Assembly: GCA_965649765.1 (NCBI GenBank)
Contig: OZ287757.1
Location: forward strand, 11,718,001-11,782,000
From: Bispira polyomma
Lineage: Eukaryota
Direction of reading: 5' to 3'
Length of the DNA stretch: 64,000 bases
Positions 16,771 through 56,879 of the stretch are shown one piece after another. The notes beneath the pieces were generated by a model, which was given only the letters and a program-made list of their open reading frames with translations, was not told the origin of the DNA and did not search any database. Position 1 is the first letter of the stretch, and every line of letters begins with the position of its first letter. Made by a program: the position numbers and the translations under genes.

Positions 16771-17419
16771 TTAATGTTCACAATACATTCTGAGAGTGGA
16801 CTCCTATCTCCCCTACTTTACAAAATCCAGGATGACACCTAATGGCTTGATACCCTACAGCCAAATATTGGCAATCCCTTGATCATGTTCCCCTCTCACA
16901 GACCACCTCCCCTTTATTGGTATATCTAATAATTGTGTGGTGTTGTTGACGGGGTAGATCAATGACCAATCAAGTCACACTTAATAGACTCATTAGTGTC
17001 AGTCGCATTATAGCTGCTCTTGATATGGTAGATTTAGTTTAGTTTGAGGCTTTTTTAACCCCTTTGCAACTGAGAAAGTGGCAGTTTCCTTGTGAAGAGT
17101 GACGAAAATTTCAGGGTAACACTTTGACCCACTTTCTAATTATGTCAGCTGTGACGTGTTACCGGACACAAAAATCTCAAAAAAATGAAAAATGATGTGT
17201 TGGCTTTTTCAACATAAAACATTGTATTTATGCATCCATTAATTCTTTCATTTTTTCTTACGACATCAATTTCTATCGGTCCACCTATGTACAAGAAAAA
17301 TATAAGAACCATAAATATGAGACAAATATAACATTAGCCACGTTAAAACAAGATACATGTTTCCATGAGTATTATCAATGACTCTACACCCTCTACAGGG
17401 TTAATCTTGTATGCTTGAT

Positions 17420-17685
17420 GGGGCCGCAGTGACCTAGTGCTTAACAAGCATTGCGCTTCACAATCACTGGTCTCTCACCTCTGGGCGGCGTGAGTTTGAA
17501 TCCCGTCGATACCTATGTGGGAAAGGTGGTAGTTCCTGACTGTGGGCCACTGGTTTCAGTGCAGAACCTTGATCAACTGTATGCAGTATTTCCTCCAGCG
17601 TTTCCAACTACCCATCCCAATATAACCTAAACAGGTACTAGAGTGGACGTTAAATATCCAAATTTGAAAAAAAAACAAAAAAAAA
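17420..17685 (+). mobile_element. tRNA-derived SINE, family A, full length
   Basis: GGGGCCGC start, A and B boxes, tail gtggacgttaaatatccaaatt plus poly(A); TSD ttgtatgcttgat / ttctatgcttgat. Confidence 0.92.
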
Positions 17686-18864: not shown

Positions 18865-19602
18865 ACAGACGTCACTCCTTACTTAAAAAAAATACACTGG
18901 CTGCCCTTTCTTTCTCGTATTTTGTCCAAGATTGAATTTACCACTTTTAAAGCTGTAGTAACGAAACAGCCCCCCCCCCCCCCCACCTTGCTTCCCTTTT
19001 CTCCTTTAGTGACCGTAAGAGAGGCAACAGCAGTCAGACCCATCGGGAAGGCGAGATCCAGAACGTTCTCCACTGCAGCTCCTTTGTTATGGAACAAACT
19101 CCCAGTTGACCTCAGATCAGTGTATACACTTATCTGTTTGAGGAAAAAGCTTCAAACATATCTTTTTAACCTTGCCTACCCACCTTAGCTTCCCTCGTGC
19201 ACGCGGGGCCGCGGTGCCCTGTTGGTTAGCAAGCATTGTGCTTCACAATCACTGGTCTCTCACCTCTGGGCGGTGTGAGTTCGAATCCTGTCGATGCCTA
19301 TGTGCAAAAAGTGGTAGTTCCTTACTGTGGGCCGCTGGTTTCAGTGCAGAACCATGATCAACTGTATGCAGTGTTTCCTCCAGTGTTTCCAACTACCCGT
19401 TCCAATATAACCTAAACAGGTACTAGAGTGGACGTTAAATATCCAAATTGAAAAAAAAAAAAAAATTCCTTTGTGCACGCTCCCACTTCCTTCCTTACAA
19501 CTTTGTTTGGTCCTTGGACCGAATGATTGGATCAATGATTCTGCTGTTGCTCTTTAGAAGATGCCTAGCATAAAAAAGCATGTTAAAAATTCAAAATAAT
19601 AA
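18865..19602 (+). mobile_element. L2-a 3' fragment interrupted by a SINE A
   Basis: HWLP..SRILSKIEFTTFKAV..RTFSTAAPLLWNKLPVDLRS..KKLQTYLFNLAYPP*; 3' UTR resumes at 19466 and ends in gatgcctagcat. Confidence 0.85.
19205..19465 (+). mobile_element. SINE family A, full length
   Basis: 15-bp TSD ttccctcgtgcacgc (19190-19204) / ttcctttgtgcacgc (19466-19480). Confidence 0.93.
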
Positions 19603-26627: not shown

Positions 26628-26887
26628 GATTTTTTTTTTTATTTTGGATATTTAACGTCCACTCTAGTACCTGTTTAGGTTAAATTGGGACGGAAAGTTG
26701 GAAATGCTGGAGGAAACACTGCATACAGTTGATCAAGGTTCTGCACTGAAACCAGCGGCCCACAGTAAGGAACTACCACCTTTCCCACATAGGCATTGAC
26801 AGGATTCGAACTCACGCCGCCCAGAGGGGAGAGATCAGTGATTGCGAAGTGCAATGCTTGCTAACCACTAGGCCACCGCGGCCCCCT
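26628..26887 (-). mobile_element. SINE family A, full length
   Basis: 12-bp TSD caaataaagtac (26616-26627 / 26888-26899). Confidence 0.93.
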
Positions 26888-26968
26888 CAAATAAAGTACA
26901 AGCATTGTGAACTTACATTGTGAAATTTCTTCAGATTGTATTTAAAAATTGTAATCTACTTTTGAGGC

Positions 26969-27287
26969 AGGGACAGCGGTGACCTAATGTTTAAAAGTAT
27001 CTGCTTCATAATCACTGGCCTCTCACCAATGTGGATTTGAATCCTTCTCGTTCCTTTATGTCGGAAATTATGTCAGGTAGAGATTCTACTTCCTATATGG
27101 CGGTGGTTTACATTGGTTTAAGTATTGGTTTCTTCCACCATTAAATCCGATGATTGTGCTATGAGCTAAGTTTAGGTTGGTGGTTTACAGTGGCTTTAGT
27201 ACTGGTTTCGTCCACCATTTTGAATCTGATGACTGTGCTATGAGCTAAGCTCTCGAAAGCGACACAACATCCCTACTAAATTCAATT
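26969..27287 (+). mobile_element. SINE family B with an internal ~75-bp tandem duplication
   Basis: Head like family A (aatcactggcctctcacc); ggtttc..ccaccatt..gtgctatgagctaag present twice. Confidence 0.7.
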
Positions 27288-28075
27288 TCTAGTTTTTAGG
27301 CTATTTTTGCCAATGATCCGCCTTTTTTAATAAAAAACTCGCCCCATTGTCAGAATGTTTTATTCACTGTGCACTTCATCAAATTGTTTATATGACACCA
27401 TTTGTTTTGGTTTTAGCCATTGACTATAGGAGATAAAATCTGTTTTTTTTGGTAATTTGAAAAACCACTTGCTACAGAATCATGCACTTAAGGCAGTATA
27501 ACAGTTGTAGTGACTATATATAGTTGGTTAAAACCCACTAAAACCATAAATAACACACTTCATCTCATGGGGTTGGATTTCCCCCTTATGTGTCTGTGAA
27601 ATACCCCCCACCCCCCATGGATTTTATGAGGTTGACATAAATACTTGTCATTATTTAGTGGACAAGTAAGAGTGTGGTGGGGAGGAGGGAGGGGAGGGGG
27701 GACCTCTGTTGTACTAGTACAAACTCTAAATAATTGTCTCTGACCCTGTAATTAACCTCTATCTGTGTGTATTGATTCACAAGGGAGAACATGGGTTGTC
27801 TTTTTAAAAGAAATACACTATAACATTGTTAACTTATTTTAAAATAGATGGGAGGTTAGACTGTCAAATAGATATGTCACATATGTAGATTCAATTTTGA
27901 TTTTCTCTCTTTTAAAAAGGTTTATGATTTGTGCCCATGTCCATTGGTTGGTTTATTTGATTTGTTTGAAACTGACCATAAATTATTATCCAGATATAGT
28001 CGGAAAATATCCAATATGGTCGAAAATGCTTGTGTAAAACACTATTATATTTATTTTAAACTCTGTAATTCTCAA

Positions 28076-28310
28076 CCCTTTCATCTCCTATAAAAAACTT
28101 ATGCTTGGAACTAAAGGACATTTTTTTTCGGAATAGGTCACAGATAGCTGAAGTTACTAAAACACAAACCACAGACTACTTCCGGCATTCAATAATGGAC
28201 TGCATACATATTTTTAAAACGAGGAATCTGTGCAACAATTTTCTGTTGCGAGGAACTAAATATATTTTTGGGGTGTCCACTGCTTACCGCCAGACTTAGG
28301 TTTTGGAGTG
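28076..28310 (+). mobile_element. M5 MITE (3'-truncated)
   Basis: CCCTTT start; aaaacacaaaccacagactacttccggcattcaataatgg. Confidence 0.75.
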
Positions 28311-28439
28311 GGCTAGTGGAGAGAAGGGGGCGTGTTCACAAACGTTCTTAGAATGAGACCTTTCTCCAGCACAGCAAATCAGATTGTTTACAAAATATAT
28401 TTTCAACCAAATCAAATTGGTTAATATTTAACTCTCTAA

Positions 28440-29077
28440 GCTTTCACTTCCTTTCAGCATGTTTTTTATCGGCCGACGTCCCCTCATTACACAATATCAC
28501 CAAGTGCTTCCTTTCAGCATATTTGTATCAGATCTGATCAGACGTCGTCCGACGTCTGTTTGGCAAAAATATTTTATCTGTCAGGAAGCGGAAAAATCGG
28601 GGAGGACTGTCTAATTTTGACATAAAAATGTCTACAGAAAGACTATCATAGGTATAGTTTTTATTCTATATATATATACTAAATATTCGTCAGATGTTGA
28701 CTTAAGAAATGCCATGAGAAAGCTTATTTTATTGTGATTACGATGCTTTTTTTCCCCAACAAAATCCGTTAAGAAACGGCTCAGATAATTATGTTTATAG
28801 ACGGGTAACCCTTTTAACTTTCCCCTTTACTGTTTATAATACATCACAGCAACGTCATAATGACATCGGTTTTGTAGCTACATCACCGTTTAGACACCTG
28901 AAGTAAAAATGGGCACCCTTATTTAACTGTATACATCTCAGCTGTAAAAAAATCACAATAAAGTAAGCTTTTTCATGCCATTTTTAAAGTCAACATCTAA
29001 CGAATATTGAGTGAATGTCGGATGAAAGAAAGCACAACGTCGGCCGACGTCAGAATTTGCTGAAAGGAAACATAGGC
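28440..29077 (+). mobile_element. MITE family M2 (Harbinger-like), split by M4
   Basis: TAA TSD on both sides; cttcctttcagca / tgctgaaaggaa TIRs. Confidence 0.8.
28686..29004. mobile_element. MITE M4 with ~55-bp TIRs, TA-flanked
   Basis: ttcgtcagatgttgacttaagaaatgccatgagaaagcttattttattgtgatt mirrored by aatcacaataaagtaagctttttcatgccatttttaaagtcaacatctaacgaa. Confidence 0.85.
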
Positions 29078-30211
29078 TAAGAATAAGAATCTTTGTGAAT
29101 ACCTTTCCACCACCAAGGCGCCTGGTCCCTTGGCAATGGAATGCAATCTACTGAGTTGAACTATTTAAAACCTAATTTTAAGAGTCCTTCTTGTTAGAGG
29201 TTTTTAGCCCTTTTGTGATGTGCTTTTTATTCGTTGTTAGCTTTTTCTAGTTTTAGTTTGCATTAAGATGCACTATTTGTTTCCATTTAAAAAAAGTTCC
29301 AAGGTAACTGGGCTGACAGAAAATCTATTGAATTGGAATTTACTATTGATAAAAACAGCAACAGCCCAGAAAATAAAACCTCCTCAGTCGATATCAAAAG
29401 AGATTCTGTAGGTGGCAAAGGTTCTTTATTACCGTAAACCTATACAAGCATTTATCCAATGCAAAACGTGAAACTATTTTGTTCTCCGACTGATTATTCC
29501 GAGTACTATAATAGCATCACTGCAATAAGATTACTTACATGAAGAGCTGCTTTACGTTGAATTAATTGCCAACACATTGTTTATGCTACATTAGCCAATC
29601 ACATAACAATACAAAGTGACCGTATGTCACATGCTATCTTTTGTCTGGTCATTTTCGGTTGCATGAATTTATTTGAGTTTTACGTTGCAGGGGTTGATAC
29701 ATGAACATGTATTTGAATTATGTATTATAGTGCTGTGTGTGGTGTGTATATTTCTGTCGTGCAGTGGTGTGTCGTTCCCTGCAGTGTAGTGAAGTGTGAT
29801 ATAGTGCAACTATATTGATTTTGAGAAATTCAAATACAGCACTTTCTGACCAAAATACAATCTTGTAACATTTCTTCTTGAAACTATTTATTATCATGCA
29901 AGGTAGACCTTTTAAATTTTATTTCTTGCTTTTATTTTACATTTTACACAGTTTTTATATTTAACCGTGTGTTTATATATGCTCTAGACAAAGGATGGTT
30001 GCAGTGTGGATTATATAAACTGAAATTCCTGGCTCCTGTGGATGTGTTATTAGTCAATGCTTTGACATATGCGAATTTGCTCATTTTGGGCTACGGTTGA
30101 GGGCTGTTCTTATTGTTATTTGAAATTTATCATATTTATTTCTTGAAATCACAAACAACCTCCACCCTAAATTCGCATGTTACAAAGCACTGCTTGCTAT
30201 ATATTTACAGA

Positions 30212-31273
30212 ATGGCACCTCGTGCAAATCATGATTGTCGTGTTTGCAAGACAAGTCACAAAAAACCCATAAACGATAACTGTCCGTTTATTAATCAGCC
30301 TGAAAACAATGACACTAATGACACTTCTACTATGTCTATTAAGGCACGTATTTTAGAAGAACTGAAAGGGCTAAGTGGAAGAATGTCAGCCATGGAGAAA
30401 CGGGTAGAGCAATCCGAAAATAGACAATTTGTTGCTAGCTCTACAGTAAGCCCTATAAATGTTGCCCCAAGTGGAATTCCCGCGGGGGCTGCGAGTGCTC
30501 TACAGACTGTTCCCACATTGACGCTGCCGACAGCCACCTAGACGACTCCTACTGTACCTGTCACCACAGACGATACACTGGTTCCTTCCCTGGCTACTCT
30601 GAAGACATCCGAGTACCTCCAGAATTCTGTAGATTCCAGACTGAGGGACTTAGCCAGCCTCAACGATAAAGGTAATGTCAAATCACAGAGAGGGGGGCCA
30701 GAAACGGTGTGGGTAAAACGCCAGGTTCCCTGGCCGCAGAACAATATTTTGGGAGGCACAACTAAGTCAAGAACTACATATGATAGTTTATCGATGGCTC
30801 AGTGGGTCGCAGGATTCTGCTCTATTGTTCGGGATGAAAATAACATTGAGACAAAAAATGCAATGTTAGATTATGTACAAGACTTAATGGAGGACTGCAA
30901 TGATTTTTCTTGGGCGGCTGCCAAAGGAAGTCATGCGGTTCTTCTATGTCGTATGGAAGAGGGTAAAGTTACTTGGCAAAAAATGGCCAAAATAGACAGA
31001 ATTAGAAGGGCGCATGCCCAAAGGGTGGTAAACAACACGGTTTCTTCCTCTCAATACAGTAAGACTAGACAGCAAAGTAGCGACAAGGGAATACCTTTCA
31101 GGTATTTCCAAAAAGGTTCGTGCCCACAAAGAAGGTATCACGAAACAAAGGGTCAGATGTACTTACACATTTGCTCTACTTGTTTCGCCATTGGGAAGTC
31201 TTATCCCCATGCCTCTAAAGATTGCCATAGAAACAAAGGCAAAACTGACCAGAATGTCGCAAAAAACGAGTAA
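30212..31273 (+). pseudogene. gag-like ORF1 (one in-frame TAG at 30539-30541)
   Basis: ORFs 30113-30541 and 30707-31273 share one frame and the gap between them is open; N-terminal CxxCxxxH..C, a coiled coil, VPSLATLK..VDSRL, WPQN..YDSLSMAQWVAGF..LMED..FSW, and a Cys/His-rich C-terminus. Confidence 0.8.
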
Positions 31274-33629
31274 GGCACTGCAGTACAGCAATGCACAAAT
31301 GTAAAATACTGAATACTGATCATGAATCTGTATATATTAGAGATCAAACGAAATATTGTAATACCAGAACTGTATATAATGTAAATTACCAAGCTGTGTG
31401 TAGTGACAACTGGAGGTCAGATTGGGCTAGATTCATTAATAAATCTTATGCACAAGTCGTGGCTCAAAACACAGGTAAAGTAAATAATAATCAAAAAACA
31501 CAACAGAATCCCGCCTCCAATTGTCACACAAGCGCGAAATGTCAAATGTACAGTGATGTATGTCCTAGTAATGTCAGTAGTTACAGGAACTCAAGGCAAC
31601 AGGTAGAAAGGGTGAAAGTTGGCACCTCTCAGGGTGTGAAACCTCTCATTAAAGAAACCCTCCTCTCCACTCCTATACCCAAGGGTCAAAGCCCCCCCTC
31701 TTTGAAACGTAGTGTCACAAAAATGTCACACAAATCAAGGGATAAAATGGGTTGCCAAAATAATCAATTACACTGTCAAAACAGATTTGCACCTCTTCAC
31801 AATTTGAGCATTGATGACGACCTTGTAATAAATACAAATCCTTGTAGTCAAAGTAGTCCAGCCTCACAGCCGGGTGATAAATATGCTCTGCAACTACAGG
31901 TAAAAAAGAAACACAGAGATGCTGTGTCAATGGCACAAGATAATAAATTGTTCAAAGCCTGGAATAGCCAAAATAAGGAAAAATTTGGGTTTATTCCCTT
32001 GCGGGATGCAAAATTGCCTAAAGAGGTTAAGGCTTGGTCACACTTGAGTTGCACAAAGTGGTTAAAGAAAACAAACTACCAAACTATCTAAATACCTGTA
32101 CAATCACAACTAAATGTCACTGAGTGGGAAAAGCTACTAGAACATTACTGGGATCGCCAGTTAATACAGCTTATCAAATTTGGGTTTCCTCTAGATTTTG
32201 ATAGGACTTGCTCCCTAGAGAATAAAGGGGAAAATCACAGCTCGGCCGTTCAGTACGAAAACGACGTTAAGGCTTACCTTGATTAGGAGAAAAACTTTAA
32301 TGCGATAATAGGTCCCTTCAGGGACCCTCCATTATCCAAACTTCATGTCTCTCGTTTTATGATGTGTCCAAAGCCAGATGCAAAACATAGACGGGTTACT
32401 ATAGATTTAAGTTGTCCTCAGGGTTGAGCAGTAAATTCAGCAATACAAAAAGACCAATACTTAGGTACTCCTTTTATTCTAACCCTGCCTACAGTTGACA
32501 ACATTACTAAAAACGTAATTAAATTGGGAAAAGGTGCACTGCTATACAAACTAGACATTAGTCGTGCATTTAGACACGTCAAAATTGATCCAGCAGATTA
32601 CAATTCATTAGGTTTACAATTAAATAATTACTACATAGATACTTGCTTGCCATTTGGATATCGGCACGGAAGCGCCATCTTCCAGCATCTCAGTGACGCC
32701 ATAAGGTTTATTATGACGTCAAATGGTCATGACGTCATCAACTATATCAATGACGTCATAGGATACGGACTTCCGGATTCAATTTCCCAGTCATTTGAAT
32801 TATTAAAAGACACGTTTCACAAATTAGGCTTCGCCATAAGTGAAAAGAAGATGGTAGCCCCCAGTACAAAAGTGATATGCCTAGGCGTATTAGTCGATAC
32901 AGAGAAATTTACAGTGTCAATCCCGGATAGCAAACTAGATGAAATTAAGCAAATATGTAAAAGCTGGAAAGACAAGAAAGTCTATAATAAATGGCAGCTA
33001 CAATCACTATTAGGCTCTCTCCTATACGTGTCAAAATGTCAAAACCTCTAGAGCATACCTTAACCGAATGTTAGATACTATCAGAGGGGCTTTTCAACAG
33101 GATTTGAACTGGTTTGATACATTCCTTACTTCCTTTAATGGGGTCGCATTTTTTGACCATAAACTCATCACTGATGAAGTACATTTAGATGCCTGCCTGC
33201 AGGGTTTAGGCGCTTCTTGCAATAATGAGATATACACTAAGCAGATACCATTGGGTTACAATAACTATACTATTGTCGATTTGGAAATGTTAAACATATT
33301 GGTTGCCCTAAGAGTCTGGAAAAATCACTGGTCGGGAAGAAAACTACTAATTCATTGTGATCATCAAGCTGTAGTGTCAATTTTAAACTCCGGTAAAACC
33401 TATGACCATACTTTGGCCGCAATAATGAGAAATATCTTTATGGTGGCAGCCCAAGCCGATATTGTGCTAAGAACAGTCCATATTTTGGGAAAAATGAACA
33501 ATACTGCCGACTTACTATCTAGATGGGCTATTACACCCAATAATGTTGACAACCTAAGCGAATTAGTAAAAAAAACCCACATGGCTTCAGGTCAAAGATG
33601 ACCTGGTACAGATAAATTGAGCTATTTAG
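31261..33629 (+). pseudogene. pol: reverse transcriptase + RNase H (DIRS/Ngaro type)
   Basis: FGFPL, GPF..PP, RRVTIDLS, LYKLDISRAFRHV, LPFGYRHGSAIFQ, YIND (YxDD decayed), CLGVLVDT; RNase H HLDACLQGLGA, LEMLN, IHCDHQAVV, HILGKMNNTADLLSR; stops at 32089, 32284 and 32425. Confidence 0.92.
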
Positions 33630-33645
33630 ATGTAAAATTTTTCAG

Positions 33646-34596
33646 GTTCTTCTACCTGGATGAACAGGCTAGCTGACATGGCGGCCAATCGAGCTCATCA
33701 AGCATTCCCACCAGCTACTCAAAAAGCTTCCTCTTCCATGTTTAGGGTGTTTCTAGCATACTGTTGTTTTGCTCACATTTCTATTCATCATATAACTCCA
33801 ATCACACTGCTTTCCTTCTTGGAAGTGCTAGTTGTCAATAATACGTCTCAGACATCAGTAACTACCTATCTGCCATTAAGGCTCAAATATCACTTTTCAG
33901 CCTCCAAGTGGGTGCCTTTTCTGATCAAAGAATTAAATACTTTCAAAAAGCTCTAATTTCACAAAGGCCTTTCAGAGCTAAGATAAATGGAATAATAGAT
34001 ATTGATCTGCTGGAAAAAATAGAAAAAACGTGTGACTCCATGTTTATGGATCAAATTTACAAAACTGCTTACCTTCTGGGTTTCTTTTATTTCCTAAGAA
34101 TTTCCAACCTAGTCCTACATTCCATGTCTACATACTCACCTCTTCACCAGTTAGCCAGGGCTGACATCATCTTCGCCCTCCTTGTGCTCATATTATTATC
34201 AAATGGACTAAAACCCTACAATCTAGAAATACCATTAAAGTCCTTAAAATTCCATCTTTACAGAATATTGCTATCTGCCCGGTTATGGCTCTAAAAGCCC
34301 TACTTACCATTACACCTGGCAGCAAAAACTCTCCCTTGTTTCAAGTAAAAAATAATGGTACCTGGGTTCCACTAACTGATTCTAAAATTCGTGCAAACCT
34401 AAAACACATATTGGCCAGGTTAGGTAAATCGGAATCCGCTCTGGCGCCACATTGGCATTCAATGCCCATGTTCCCTACAAGACATTCAGAGCCAGGGCAT
34501 TTGGTCCTCTGAATGCGTTTGAAGATACATTACACAAGATCTGACCAAGTAGCCCTCGCCCTTCAGTCTCTGCTCAACTCAACCCCTACCTCCTAG
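33646..34596 (+). pseudogene. Tyrosine recombinase (YR), frameshifted, HxxR box deleted
   Basis: AF..ATQ..MFRVFLAYC, GFFYFLRISNLV (catalytic Arg box), IKWTKTLQ, ICPVMAL, PLF, (R)SGATLAF, GIWSSECV*RY. Confidence 0.88.
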
Positions 34597-35180
34597 TTGG
34601 GCCTTGGTGGTTATTGTCTTATCTAATTAAAATTTACAACTTTTAACTTTACCTTTTGCTAACCTACTTAAGACCACCTTATAGTCAAAATTTTATGGTA
34701 ACCTCAAAGAGAAATGTAAGGCTAAGGCCAGTCTTAAATTATTTAATATAAAATGTTAAGGTTACCTTAAATTCATTAATAGTAAAATTAATATCCTTAA
34801 TTTACGTTCACCTTAAACCAAGTCTAACTCAAGCCACACTTAATGTAACTTAGACTATGGTCATCGTTATCTCACTAAGGTGGTCTTATTTAATTTAAAA
34901 TATTTTATCAATTCATATATATGTGTAGAAGTAGATAAATATATATAATCCTAACTGTTGTCTTATTTGAGGTCAAACTCCAACTCAAGGTCAGAGCACT
35001 AAACTTCTTATATACTGAAAACTTCAGGATTCCAGTTTTGCACTAGTCTTCCTGAAGGGCCCCGTCTTATTGCAGTTCAGAGAAGATCCTGACACTACCA
35101 TACTAATCTGTAATACTTTCGTCCCACCAAAACATTGGCTATCGTAATGTAATGATCAATTGGTGAAAAATCAACATTTA

Positions 35181-35422
35181 CCCTTTTCACCCCAAGGAAC
35201 AATTACCGCCCTGTACCGAAGGAAATTTCTCGGTAATAGGCTATGGAAAGCTGGAGTCACTAAAACACACCCCACAGAATACTTTGGGGATTCAAATGTA
35301 ATGCCCTCATGTATAATATTTTAATTTTATAACGGGGAACAATGCGGTACTAACACTTTCATATTGTTAGGACCTGAAAATTTAGTCCAATGTTTGCCGG
35401 CAGACATAGATTCTGGGAGTAA
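35181..35422 (+). mobile_element. M5 MITE interrupted by M2
   Basis: cccttttc start; agctggagtcactaaaacacac. Confidence 0.7.
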
Positions 35423-35730
35423 GCCTGTGCATCCTTTTAGCAGATTCCGACGTCAGCCAATTTATTAACATCCGAGCCGATCCGACATCAGCCAATGTAG
35501 CATTTCCTTTCATCCAATATTAAAAAACATTTTAATATAATTCTTTTTCTTCATTTTTGTTCAAAAATTGGACAGACGTCCCGATTGTTTCACTCTCTGA
35601 CCAATAAATTTTGATGGTACGTGTAACAGATGTCAGCCGACGTCTGATCTAATCTGAGGGAAATATGTTGAAAGGAAGCCATTAGTAATATTAAATAATG
35701 ATCGATAACATGCTAAAAGGAAGCCTAAGC
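35423..35730 (-). mobile_element. M2 MITE
   Basis: Reverse-complement homolog of 38165-38507; TAA and TTA flanks. Confidence 0.8.
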
Positions 35731-35744
35731 TTAGAGATGCTGTC

Positions 35745-36004
35745 TTTTGAATTGAATTTGGATATTTTTAACGTCCACTCCAGTACCTTTTAGTAGGTTA
35801 TATTGGGACAGGTAGTTAGAAACGCTGGAGGAAACATTGCATACAATTGATCAAGGTTCTGCACTGAAACCAGCGGCCCACAGTAAGGAACTACCACCTT
35901 TCCCACATAGGCATCGACGGGAGTCGAACTCAAGCCACCCAGAGGTGAGAGACCAGTGATTGTGAAGTGCAATGCTTGCTAACCACTAGGCCACCGCGGC
36001 CCCC
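35745..36004 (-). mobile_element. SINE family A, full length
   Basis: 14-bp TSD ttagagatgctgtc / ttatagacgctgtc. Confidence 0.92.
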
Positions 36005-37319
36005 TTATAGACGCTGTCAGCTGCTAGCTGGCAACAAAAGTGGTTGACACGGTTAATTTCAAAATTAAAATCCATGATACAATACCTAATGGTTGAAAAA
36101 AATTGGTAAAACAAATTGGGTTAATCGCTTATTTATCCTGGAGCTTCACATACAGGTATGTTAGGCCCAACAATGGATATATTTAGAAATTCACAGAGGA
36201 AAACAGATTAACTTAGTCCCAGCACAAACCAGTCCAGAATGGTTAATCCTCAAAGACCATGCAGTCTGATAAGGGTAAAGTGACTTACTTGTCTTTAAAT
36301 TTTTAACAGTTGTGATAGGATTTACCAACCAGTAAACAAATATTTCATTAGGAAAAGCTGTTACTAATTTAAACGACGGGTTAATGAGTTTAAGAAAGCT
36401 GCAAGTGGCTTCAAGATGGCACAGACAGCTTCTAGTATATGTTAATAGAAAGCCTTTAAGTATCATAAATTGGGATTTGCGAATCGATTCTTATCTGGTT
36501 TAGGTGCATTTTAATGCGCAAAGCGATGTAACCAAAGTAAAATTCAGAAATAAAAACTAAAAATCGTAGTTTTTTGGTTCTTGAAGTAAATAAGAAACCG
36601 TGTTAAAAAGTTATATTTTCAAGGTAAAGTTGAAATAACCTCCCCAAGGATCTAATTATCGGTACAATGGTAGATTTGTGACATTTGTTTTGATGGAGAC
36701 TGTAAAACTTAATAAAGACTACACATGCATATCATAATTCTTTGGAAGAGCATGTTTTTGCTAAAGAACCTGAAGATTGAATAAACCATTGCTTAATGGT
36801 AATTGCTTTTCTGAAATCAGAAAAGCCATAAAAACGTTGAAGTAATGGCTATATATTCAGTTCCAATGTCACATTCTATCAATGGTGTGTGATTTAATAA
36901 TGTAAATATATCTTTTTAATCAATATGATTTATTTATATATATATTCTTAAATGTTGATTACCTGTAGGAAATTTGACCAAATGTTACCAAAAATAGCTA
37001 CAGTCTTTGATTGCATTATAATACCATTCAAAAAGTATTGTCATAAATCTGCCAAATACTAATGGACACATTATGTGTGCATATATACAAAGGATAAATA
37101 TCTTTCAACAGCTAAAAATTACTGTAACTTAAAACTATTCAGGTCGTTCCCTGAAATTATAGATGTTGCACTTGACACCAGTTTGAGGGGCGGGGGGGGG
37201 GGGAGGGGGGGGGCTGATGTCATAGATGACTTGATTTCTGAGGTTCACTGTGACGTGTCCCTCTGGCAAGATAGCTGAGAGACAGCATATATGCTGGTAG
37301 CTTTAATGGGCAGTCTTTA

Positions 37320-37605
37320 AAAACGCTCTTTTATTGTTTCCGGCAACAATTTCAGATGAGAAGGTTACAGACAGCTGGAGTCACTAAAACACACACCACA
37401 GACTACTTCTGACATTCAATACCGGCCTCACATATAATTATAAAAAGGGGCGAATTCTGCTGTACTACCCATTCCCTACTTCGAGGGACTGAAGATAATC
37501 AGAATAATATTTTCAGCGTGTCGACTATTTGCCGACAAATATAGGTCCTGGGAGGAACAAATGCTATTGTCTGACAGTCGACAACCCAGGAGTCAAAATC
37601 AGGGT
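37320..37605 (+). mobile_element. M5 MITE
   Basis: cagctggagtcactaaaacacacaccacagactacttc..gtcgacaacccaggagtcaaaa. Confidence 0.7.
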
Positions 37606-38164
37606 TTGCATGTTAATATTATAAATGTTTTGTACACTAAACCCTTAACTTTCTATTCATTAAAAATGCCTTATAAACGATCATTAACAAATTTGCGAAT
37701 GATATAACCCAATAACTAAAACCACATCTTTAAATATAAATCTCGTGAGATTTCCTATAATATTTAATTTCTTGCACACCACATTTTTTCTATTTTTAAG
37801 TGACAGTTGATGGAACTCTTTTTGTTTAACTGGGTCTTTGAGAACCAATTTGCCAGTGTCAATGCTGCAGGTAGCCTGGGCTAAGGCCCATAAGTTATTT
37901 ATAACAATTTTTGGGGGGCGTGGTTTATAAGCATCTGGGGTTATAATATCGAACAACTAAAACTAAAATTTTACTTCCTTATACCCAAGTGCTATTCTCA
38001 AAAACAGGAGAAAACTTAAACACATATTTAACCTTAAAGATAAAGGTTGATTCTATGGCAAACTTAAGACAGTGAATTTTTTTGGAATAGTAATTTACTT
38101 ACGTAAATATATATGATGGTTCCGATACAGAAAATAGCAGTACAAAGCATAGGATGTTCACTTA

Positions 38165-41513: not shown

Positions 41514-41852
41514 TACGAAGCTCTCCTGCTGCCATAGACAAAAATATTTTTGCCAATTAAATCGTTATAACAATTTAATTAAATCATTATAATGGATTAC
41601 TAAATCGTTCTAACAATTAAATTAAATTGTTATAATGATTTAGTAATCCGTTCTGACAATTTATTAAATCATTATAAGGGATTACTAAATTGTTATAACA
41701 ATTTAATTAAATCATTAAAACGATTTAAAAAAAAAACTGTCTTTTTAAATTGTTATAACGATTTAGTAATCCATTATAACAATTTAATTAAATTGTTATA
41801 ACGATTTAATTGGCAAAAATATTTTTGTCTATGGCGGCAGGAGAGCTTCGTA
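41514..41852. mobile_element. Foldback-like palindromic MITE
   Basis: tacgaagctctcctgctgccatagacaaaaatatttttgccaattaaatcgttataac mirrored almost perfectly at the right end; interior built from ~21-bp units. Confidence 0.9.
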
Positions 41853-52605: not shown

Positions 52606-52803
52606 TTGAGTTTTGGATATTTAACGTCCACTCTAGTACCTTTTAGTAGGTTATATTGGGACGGGGAGTTGGAAACGCTGGAGGAAACACTGCCACCTTT
52701 CCCAAATAGGCGTCGACGGGATACGAACTCACGCTGCCCAGAGGTGAGAGACCAGTGATTGTGAAGCACAATGCTTGCTAACCACTATGGCCACCATGGC
52801 CCC
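52606..52803 (-). mobile_element. SINE family A with ~60-bp internal deletion
   Basis: Perfect 15-bp TSD tccattgaacttaca (52591-52605 / 52804-52818). Confidence 0.92.
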
Positions 52804-53957
52804 TCCATTGAACTTACAAACAACTCCAAGTATTTGTATTGCCCTTTATCACTGGGCAAGAACCATGTTATAGCGGCAAGTACTGCCCTGGAGAAATTAA
52901 TTAAACCATCTTAATGTTGTTTTTTTTCTAACAACTTGTTGGTAGAAATGTGAAACTGTTACAACATTTCCTGATACCCCAGGAAAACTATATCAGATAA
53001 GCTAAATGAGAACTAAATGACTGATTGTTGAAATTGGAATTTTTATGTTGGGATTTTACATCACTTTCAACAAGTACTATTTTTTCAGTCGCTTTTGGCT
53101 AACGATGCTAAGAAACCAAACAAACAAACAGGCAGTGAAGAAAACATAACATCTTTGGTAAAAGAAATGCTGTATAAATGTACGTTTTTCAGTAGGCATA
53201 ATTTTAGCTAATGAGTTCATACAGTAAACATAAATTCCTTGATATTTTAACTAAAAATAAATTATTTTACAAAAATTAAATTAAAATTTTAATTAGTGAA
53301 ATTTTCTTCTCTAGCTAAACTTTTCACTTACTTACAACATCTTTATGTCACACTTCTTATTTGGCCATCTATGCATCCTGCGACATTATCTGCCATGCAT
53401 ACATGGAACAGATTGATATCCAGTATATGAATTTAGATACTACAATTGGTGTTCAATGTGTAAAACACTTGCGTATGACAAGCAGATACATAATGGCTTC
53501 AATGACCATTTAAAATGACAACTGGAAATGGGTACCAATTGCTGAAGGCTGCCATTTTTAGTGATCCTACAAGCTGTTCCTAGGTTAGCGTGTTAGACAC
53601 TATCTCACAGTATATTTGCCCATAATAAAGAGACAAAAAAGTTCCACCTAGAAAACTCCATTCCATATTTTAATCCATGGCAAATGTTTGCATAAAGCTT
53701 GACTGTCTGGCTCTAGGGATATACCTTGCTCAGAATATGTATAAATGTCTCTGGCCTTAAATGGGGACACAGTTTTTTCAGAAAGTCAATGTTGTTGTTG
53801 GTAAAAAGAGAAATAAGGACTAAAAATGGATATTCTTGTAGTCAGTAAAGCCGGAGTCCAACTTAGGTGACAAAAGTGGCCGACATGGTTGCAATAATTT
53901 GATGGCGATTGTAGAAATGTATTAATATTTTAATTAAAGATAAATTATAAAAATAAA

Positions 53958-54222: not shown

Positions 54223-54309
54223 ATCAGTGTGCAGTATAAATAACGAAGAAAGGGGGCTCAGAAATGCATCTTTAAAGTAGCATGATGACACTGATCAGAC
54301 GCCAAAGAC

Positions 54310-54916
54310 ACACAGATGGGACAGCCATGATACCACAGTAAGACACGGATAGGACACCCAGGAGACACAGATTAGACAGCCATGATACCACAGTAAAATA
54401 CAGATAGGACACACAGGAGACACACATTAGACAGGCATGATACCACAGTCAGACAAGGACAGGACAACAACACACAAAATCTTGTTGCTGATGGCGATTT
54501 TTGGACAAGCCCACTGTAAAACAAGTATGTGATAGTGTCAGGACAGTGTCGTCTCATTGTCTCGTTTACTGTAGCTTACTTTAGGATTACCTAGCCATGA
54601 TACTACATTAAGATGAGGATAGGACACCTAGGAGACACAAATTGGACAGCCATTATACCACAGTGAGATACAGATAGGACATCCAGGAGACACAGATTAG
54701 ACAGGCATGATACCACAATGAGATACAGATAGGACACACAGGAGACACGCATTAGACAGGCATGATACCACAGTCAGACAAGGACAGGACAACAACACAA
54801 AATCTTGTTGCTGATGGTGATTTTTGGACAAGCCCACTGTAAAACTAGTATGTGATAGTGTCAGGACAGTGTCGTCTCATTGTCTCGTTTACTGTAGCTT
54901 ACTTTAGGATTACCTA
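54310..54916. repeat. Higher-order tandem repeat: 56-bp units plus a ~140-bp block, duplicated with a period of ~323 bp
   Basis: gacagccatgataccacagt..gataggacac..aggagacaca units; block 54450-54593 repeated at 54774-54916. Confidence 0.92.
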
Positions 54917-55936: not shown

Positions 55937-56611
55937 GTGATCGGAAAGTACTTTGATAAACTTTTGATAGTTAAATCTATGACACTTAAATTTTTTCTAG
56001 TAGATGACTTTTCAGTCTTTTCTGTCATATTGGTTTCAGGATTGGTGCTCCCTGGATAAAGTCGTAGTTACAGTGGTGATTTGAAGATAACATCTACTGG
56101 CAAGATGTTGACCAGTTTCATGTTGTCCTAGGACTTAATCCATGGGAATGTAATTCTTACAATTTTTTTATTCTCAGCCAATCAGATTCCTTGAAAAATA
56201 TGTACAGCCAATAAAATTGCTTGAGACAAAAGTTAACACTAAAAGAATCTTTGTGAATACCAGCTCTTGATCGAAAAAAAAAATAGCCTTAAAGAATGTA
56301 CTGCTTCAATTTTAGGGCTATATTTGGCACATGTCATTAGATATGGCACTATGAATTTACTCAAACATATCTCCGAAAGGCATAGTCCTAGACCATAACC
56401 TGTGTTGTAGTTATCAGTAGACAATGGCATGCTCAGATCTTCCCAAAGGATGTTGTCCCACCCCCAAATGAATCTAGTGACATTAGTAAGAGTTACCTTA
56501 CAATCACATGACAAACTCATCCCCAACTGGAAGTCAAACCGGGACATTCGAATCACGAATATTAACAGGGTCTAGAATTTAACACATGACTGCAGAGGTG
56601 GTGGGCCAGAT

Positions 56612-56879
56612 TGTTACCACAATACCACCAATAACCCTATACCCCTAAAACATGTAAAGCCAGAGTGTTACCATTATACCACCAATAACCCTATACCCCT
56701 AAAACATGTAAAGCCAGAGTGTTACCATTATACCATCAATAACCCTTTTACCACTGAAACACGTAAAGTCAGAGTGTTACCACCATACCACCAATAACCC
56801 TTATACCACTAAAAATGTAAAGTCAGAGTGTTACCACTATGCAACCAAAACCCTTTTACCCTTTTAAAACATGTAAAGC
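56612..56879. repeat. ~54-bp minisatellite, 5 copies
   Basis: gtgttaccattataccaccaataaccctatacccctaaaacatgtaaagccaga, with gtgtta at 56665, 56719, 56774 and 56828. Confidence 0.92.

Follow-up and report, generated by a model that had tools for sequence, protein, structure and literature searches.

A conserved A_AAA_AAC heptamer and downstream stem-loop at the end of gag point to -1 frameshifting into pol in a family of Ngaro-like retrotransposons of Bispira polyomma

Ngaro-like elements, according to the definitions that we applied (taken from sections of PMC9210276, PMC4157794 and PMC3783388), carry gag, a reverse transcriptase (RT)/RNase H region and a tyrosine recombinase (YR) on one strand, possess split repeats and have no methyltransferase (MT), and the family described here is like them in all of these features. 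Structure alone may mislead, a caution that is voiced in the excerpted text of PMC4157794 on account of the loss of the MT in a PAT lineage. In the portions of the literature examined, the translation of the second and third open reading frames of DIRS-order elements has so far been guessed from the overlaps of these frames and is untested; Poulter and Butler (2015), as quoted in a passage of PMC13003380, expected the YR to be expressed via frameshifting. A -1 frameshift between gag and pol is common in retroviruses and in animal LTR elements; among the latter, pol lies in the -1 frame in 28 of the 51 elements surveyed in the consulted part of PMC5009743, many of them with classical slippery heptamers, and A_AAA_AAC ranks there among the heptamers on which mammalian ribosomes are most prone to shift. 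Typical spacers between such a heptamer and its stimulator measure 6-9 nt, as given in the consulted section of PMC3835772.

The window analyzed here, a stretch of 64,000 nucleotides from the B. polyomma contig OZ287757.1 (positions 11,718,001 to 11,782,000 of the forward strand; assembly GCA_965649765.1), contains a decayed copy of a Ngaro-like YR retrotransposon that belongs to a large family in the 1.04-Gb genome (Table 1). Comparison with family copies places the start of homology at 29909-29930 and its end at 35000. The window copy is devoid of A repeats and of B2 and has kept only B1; no A repeat was found within 27000-38000, though close relatives have A1 directly upstream. The copy starts just past the place of A1 and ends with the end of B1. 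Its gag is 65.5% identical to the open Gag of a relative over 380 columns, the match to an open 840-amino-acid Pol used as tblastn query begins at 31261, and the RT core yields an RVT_1 match with an E value of 1.1e-7. Both pol and YR are interrupted by stops and frame changes. With its early gag stop, its damaged hairpin and its broken pol, the window copy is a fossil, and it is unable to use the frameshift site because the in-frame gag stop listed in Table 1 precedes it.

Table 1. Features of the element and of its surroundings (window coordinates).
Feature	Position	Strand	Basis or remark
Decayed Ngaro-like copy (gag, pol RT/RNase H, YR, B repeat)	29910..35000	+	homology to family copies
gag ORF, C-terminal Cys/His knuckle, end K-N-E-stop	30212..31273	+	in-frame TAG at 30539-30541
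Candidate 5' splice site AAG/GTAATG, gag phase 1	30669..30677	+	intron would begin at 30672
pol (RT, RNase H, no methyltransferase), -1 frame entry	31261..33629	+	several stops and frame changes
Slippery heptamer A_AAA_AAC, X XXY YYZ phase of gag	31261..31267	+	kept in 65/79, 30/30 and 15/18 copies
7-nt spacer: last gag codon and gag stop (31271-31273)	31268..31274	+	same length in 65 anchored copies
Stem-loop: 7-bp stem (31275-31281 with 31288-31294), 6-nt loop	31275..31294	+	one mismatch in window copy
Private ATG in 3' arm of stem, no conserved start	31291..31293	+	first base G in 60/65
Candidate 3' splice site directly past pol stop, YR phase 1	33630..33645	+	junction 33645/33646
Tyrosine recombinase ORF, frameshifted in window copy	33646..34596	+	tblastn
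B1 repeat	34607..35000	+	79% identical to B2 repeat of locus L108
Dispersed repeat copies	17415-17680, 19205-19465, 26630-26895, 35794-36013, 52689-52812	both	

Relatives with open frames encode a gag product of about 330-375 amino acids (counted from the start Met) with a C-terminal Cys/His knuckle, a Pol of 840-866 amino acids with RT and RNase H, and a YR of about 335 amino acids, all three in the same orientation as is characteristic of Ngaro-like elements. Their YR proteins match Phage_int_SAM_5 above and Phage_integrase below the Pfam cut-off, and catalytic-type motifs are present in the YR of locus L093. Pol ends 33 amino acids past the RNase H match, and 101 of 107 homologues end 20-39 amino acids past the RNase H motif; a domain search of the relatives returned no match to a methyltransferase domain. 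Split direct repeats in the order A1, ORFs, B1-A2, B2, with the internal pair downstream of YR, were found in seven of 20 long loci (L091, L098, L101, L103, L104, L108 and L109). An affiliation with the DIRS1-like or PAT-like elements was rejected on account of the missing MT domain, which concerns both groups, and of the missing inverted terminal repeats with an ICR, which concerns the DIRS1-like elements; likewise, the structure is that of a YR retrotransposon and not of an LTR element. By the structural definitions the element is Ngaro-like, this assignment being one by structure.

Several other repeats were noted along the way. The flank of L091 is repeated on both sides, so that this copy lies inside tandem repeats; a 188-bp satellite surrounds the copy at L103, units of about 65 bp lie alongside L102, and a 251-codon open frame downstream of YR at L100 (6970-7725) may be host sequence. 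Within the window, a dispersed SINE- or MITE-like repeat of about 210-260 bp recurs on both strands with 81-92% similarity, and the regions 41514-41852, 54238-54857 and 56581-56852 contain a 108-nt inverted repeat (95%) in AT-rich 43-nt units as well as 55-nt tandem arrays.

The initial annotation had noted an A AAA AAC heptamer in canonical phase at the end of gag and had proposed that Pol is made from it as a Gag-Pol fusion through a -1 ribosomal frameshift. Position and phase are borne out by the sequence: gag ends GCA AAA AAC GAG TAA (31259-31273), with the heptamer one codon ahead of the stop. AAAAAAC by itself is common in this AT-rich DNA, with 28 occurrences on one strand of the window and 20 on the other (48 in all); a single copy therefore proves nothing, and the question was settled on the relatives. 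Ninety loci were selected by Gag protein similarity (the best 30 matches and 60 hand-picked along a list of 150), and the removal of 11 place duplicates left 79, window copy included; since these copies are mutually related, counts among them represent non-independent events. The end K-N-x-stop, counted at the protein level, is present in 65 of the 79 copies, and all 65 read A_AAA_AA(C/T): the Lys codon is AAA, the codon before it has A in third position, and the Asn codon is AAC in 58 and AAT in seven. Six different residues precede Lys (Ala 44, Ser 10, Thr 5, Val 3, Pro 2, Ile 1), and the gag stop is variable as well (TAG 32, TAA 29, TGA 4). As a control, other conserved Lys codons of gag are AAA in anything from 32 of 73 to 72 of 77 cases, and silent positions differ between copies in nearly all of the other conserved gag codons considered (Lys, His, Cys, Gly, Ala and Val); the constraint therefore acts on the nucleotides. 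The 14 copies that fail the strict test, nine with an altered or out-of-phase motif and five without any, look like products of decay.

On a genome-wide scale, a 21-nt motif composed of heptamer, codon, stop and 5' arm of the stem occurs 419 times and a 34-nt motif with both arms 454 times, while the reversed controls occur 0 times each; hence the combination of heptamer, stop and arm is not a product of chance. More distant clades (40-49% Gag identity), which were reached with a distant homologue as query, carry the in-phase heptamer in 45 of 48 copies (all 30 of one clade, 14 of them from one near-identical subfamily, and 15 of 18 others). Gag homologues from other assemblies possess the K-N-x end in 52 of the 78 cases that have the terminal knuckle. 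A metagenome scan with the Gag alignment returned three loci at which only 19 residues matched (E 2e-4 to 3e-4), and these were discarded as uninformative.

The -1 frame had also been described as open and as the frame of the RT core, and this holds: the window ORF at 31249-32091, interrupted 276 codons past the heptamer, lies in frame with the RT-core ORF at 32428-33051. Across the 65 heptamer-bearing copies, the median open length from the heptamer onward is 152 codons in the -1 frame and 14 in the +1 frame, and at least 100 codons are open in 39 copies for the former and in one for the latter. On the upstream side of the heptamer, the median open length of the -1 frame is only four codons, and none of the 65 copies has a Met in this overlap. 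From these lengths and Met counts it follows that the frame opens at the slippery site and that there is no shared start codon. A -1 frame stop stands two codons on in the seven AAT copies, which we infer to result from CpG decay.

One of the alternatives to frameshifting is the translation of pol from an AUG of its own (that at 31291 in the window), be it through reinitiation once gag has been terminated, through leaky scanning or from an internal promoter. It can draw on the ATG situated 10 codons into the -1 frame of the window copy, on the seven of the 65 copies in which a Met follows the heptamer by no more than 30 codons (at four different positions; in three of the copies it overlaps a TGA stop), on a second-clade subfamily with a Met at codon 18, and on the poor conservation of the pre-RT part of Pol. 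However, the window ATG, against whose use the initial annotation had argued, proved to be private to this copy (Table 1); the other 58 copies have no Met within 30 codons, in three copies, whose frames extend for 839 codons, the earliest Met is at codon 115, and an own start would leave the codon-level conservation of the heptamer unexplained. We hence consider this route to be very improbable when compared with entry into pol by a -1 shift. In the subfamily of L099, L100 and L145, a TGA gag stop overlaps a -1 frame ATG next to an intact heptamer, and the overlap in these three copies would also permit reinitiation.

Folding of the sequence downstream of the heptamer uncovered a conserved hairpin that begins 7 nt past it. 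Of the 65 heptamer-bearing copies, 47 have a fully paired stem; 19 different loop hexamers occur, and conservation amounts to 92-100% per stem position, 71-95% in the loop and mostly 37-80% in the flanks. At 49 non-redundant junctions, a 40-nt segment starting 5 nt downstream of the heptamer has a mean z of -3.28 (below -2 in 35 of the 49), as against mean values of -0.94 to +0.24 for the 12 other segments; the folding signal is thus confined to the stretch just downstream of the heptamer. The fold of the window copy, as had been recognized at the outset, is weak: its energy is -6.6 kcal/mol, against -12.8 and -15.7 in two relatives, and it is no better than shuffles in the four segments assessed (z -0.48 to +1.18), so that the signal is found only across the family. 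An A in its 3' arm, where G stands in 60 of 65 copies, gives rise to the ATG at 31291 and leaves the hairpin with half the folding energy of its nearest relatives.

Distant clades possess different stems with longer loops, again 6-9 nt downstream of the heptamer; among 17 second-clade representatives, 15 have a spacer of 9 nt and two have one of 6 nt, and in another distant clade it measures 8 nt. In some subfamilies the gag stop is located 5-8 codons later, inside or beyond the hairpin, and heptamer and hairpin are still found together; copies of this late-stop kind are L186-L196, L202, L208, L215, L221, L228 and L229. A pattern search at one stem pair in the window clade found two variants, neither of them compensated, and compensatory changes are few within the second clade; because of this scarcity, the pairing is supported mainly by the replacement of whole stems between clades. 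In a weak test for a pseudoknot on 20 representatives, the longest pairing of the loop with downstream sequence averaged 4.35 against 3.89 in shuffles, and no conserved second stem was seen within 35 nt. The stimulator looks more like a simple stem-loop than like a pseudoknot of the mouse mammary tumor virus (MMTV) type, and a hairpin of 7 bp is a modest stimulator.

Between subfamilies whose Gag proteins are about 60% identical, the stem hardly changes in sequence, and it is found in other assemblies as well; among 120 proteins, Gag homologues with a lost stop or a shifted frame encode it in one or another of three frames (11, 9 and 1 proteins). The overlap with Pol coding (H-C-x-x-A-V), combined with pairing, may account for this near-invariance, as may a bound factor; that a regulator, for instance Gag, additionally binds to the stem seems rather doubtful to us. 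One could go further and regard the inverted repeat as a signal for RNA packaging or dimerization, or as a DNA target of the recombinase or of a transcription factor, with K-N being kept for the sake of the protein. The stem is indeed more invariant than pairing alone demands, and the repeat, with a 7-bp arm on either side of a 6-bp spacer, is similar to the core sites of recombinases. Yet in the other clades the same heptamer is followed at an equal distance by different stems with larger loops, a constraint on the protein cannot fix silent positions, and pol would be left without a route to its translation. As a replacement for frameshifting, such a function is therefore as improbable as an own start of pol; as a second role of the inverted repeat besides frameshifting, it is possible.

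For the third gene of the element, the relatives suggest a different mode of expression. One Gly codon of gag is the site of a donor-like G/GTA in 73 of the 78 copies that were mapped and reads GGT in 74 of them, whereas other conserved Gly codons vary. Immediately past the pol stop, the first YAG stands in YR phase 1 in 47 of 53 assessable copies (60 long loci minus seven that were unmappable), while YR is in frame 0 with respect to pol in 27 of the 53, in +1 in 6 and in +2 in 20. Since donor and acceptor phases match, a Gag-YR fusion is predicted from a spliced RNA, and a constant acceptor beside a variable pol-YR frame argues against a frameshift from pol into YR. We therefore regard it as likely, judging from these sequence patterns, that the YR would be made from a spliced RNA that links the beginning of gag with YR. 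For the second clade, a motif matching the gag donor was located in 13 of 30 copies, with GT in one of them, and the claim concerning the donor is thus limited to the window clade, being unconfirmed in the second. Three contig sets of one study that were placed on L093 match the predicted intron at none of the 15 joints listed out of 23, a result that is uninformative on splicing; the contigs accumulate, with loose ends, where the heptamer-hairpin island begins and where it stops, in agreement with its conservation and not independently of the genome. Just upstream of the gag ATG, a pyrimidine-rich, acceptor-like stretch ending in CAG is present at 30200-30214, and an AG within four bases upstream of the mapped ATG is, by rough mapping, frequent among 50 loci; the stretch is possibly the end of an intron in the 5' UTR.

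Splice signals conserved elsewhere in the family lend some initial appeal to the idea that the end of gag is itself a splice site (GA/GTAAG at 31269/31270) through which pol is reached, and the window sequence is donor-like at this point. The G of the GT in question is, however, present in only 31 of 65 copies, a donor at this position would remove pol instead of expressing it, and its phase 2 does not match the phase 1 of the YR acceptor, which leaves this idea hardly credible. Equally little can be said for slippage of RNA polymerase or reverse transcriptase on the six-A run with the addition of a base, although a few copies have indeed gained or lost an A there: six A residues are short for such slippage, and the geometry of the ribosome is matched by the phase, by the conserved C and by a hairpin at a spacing of 6-9 nt.

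Even when combined, these four alternatives retain only a small probability, and we consider it very likely that a -1 programmed frameshift at A_AAA_AAC would yield Gag-Pol in active members of the family, as the initial annotation had suggested; each computational check that it put forward turned out in its favor. The family has the canonical components of such a signal, namely a phased heptamer at the end of gag that is conserved at the codon level, a spacer, a downstream hairpin that varies between clades, and an open -1 frame with no conserved start of its own; the slippage itself and its efficiency would follow from the known mechanism, by analogy. In active members, the full-length RNA would be translated from the gag AUG, and the majority of ribosomes would terminate one codon past A_AAA_AAC to release Gag. 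A minority would be held up by the G+C-rich stem-loop, which lies 7 nt farther on, while tRNA-Lys and tRNA-Asn occupy AAA AAC, slip back by one base in tandem, and proceed through CGA to form Gag-Pol with its RT and RNase H as a minor product. The overall scheme that we favor, with somewhat less assurance than its parts, is a retrovirus-like one of which the literature consulted gives no description for the DIRS order: one RNA would provide Gag and, through the -1 slip, Gag-Pol, while a spliced RNA lacking the end of gag and the whole of pol would provide a fusion of the N-terminal part of Gag with the recombinase, in place of the second frameshift expected by Poulter and Butler (2015). The exact 34-nt signal, the natural variants of its stem and the predicted splice sites are all directly testable, and in annotation Pol is better modeled as a Gag-Pol fusion than from the first ATG.

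Goodwin and Poulter in 2004 and Poulter and Butler in 2015 are said to discuss frameshifting between the ORFs of Ngaro elements, possibly between gag and pol too. A heptamer with a stimulator was encountered for no member of the DIRS order in the literature searched, which comprised parts of PMC3266345, PMC3783388, PMC6681497, PMC8547959, PMC9210276, PMC7192593 and PMC4157794; the founding Ngaro papers may already propose one. With regard to the YR, the expectation of Poulter and Butler (2015) differs from what is found here, where the frame between pol and YR varies and the splice acceptor is constant. A further difference from the description of Ngaro-like elements is the presence of about 0.7-0.9 kb between A2 and B2.

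The gag-pro heptamer of MMTV is likewise A_AAA_AAC and is accompanied by a pseudoknot; the analogy with MMTV is valid for the heptamer only. As is proposed for this family, MMTV and the deltaretroviruses link Gag to enzymes by slippage where gag ends, and the deltaretroviral gag-pro stimulators are generally regarded as stem-loops in the text consulted of PMC3835772. Unlike retroviruses, the element has no protease, DDE integrase, env or LTR, it would employ one shift rather than two, and its loop sequence is variable. The -1 signal between ORF1a and ORF1b of astroviruses uses the same heptamer, with a spacer of 6-8 nt, and chicken astrovirus is listed as a user of a stem-loop according to Recode (same section of PMC3835772); virus and polymerase are unrelated to the element, and the pseudoknots that the section mentions as proposed for several astroviruses differ from the situation here, where none is supported. 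The animal elements treated in the consulted part of PMC5009743 are LTR elements, and Ngaro and tyrosine-recombinase elements go unnamed in it, the term DIRS having 0 occurrences in the paper. The mechanism that we propose for the B. polyomma family is thus a textbook one, and the class of elements that hosts it may be new for it.
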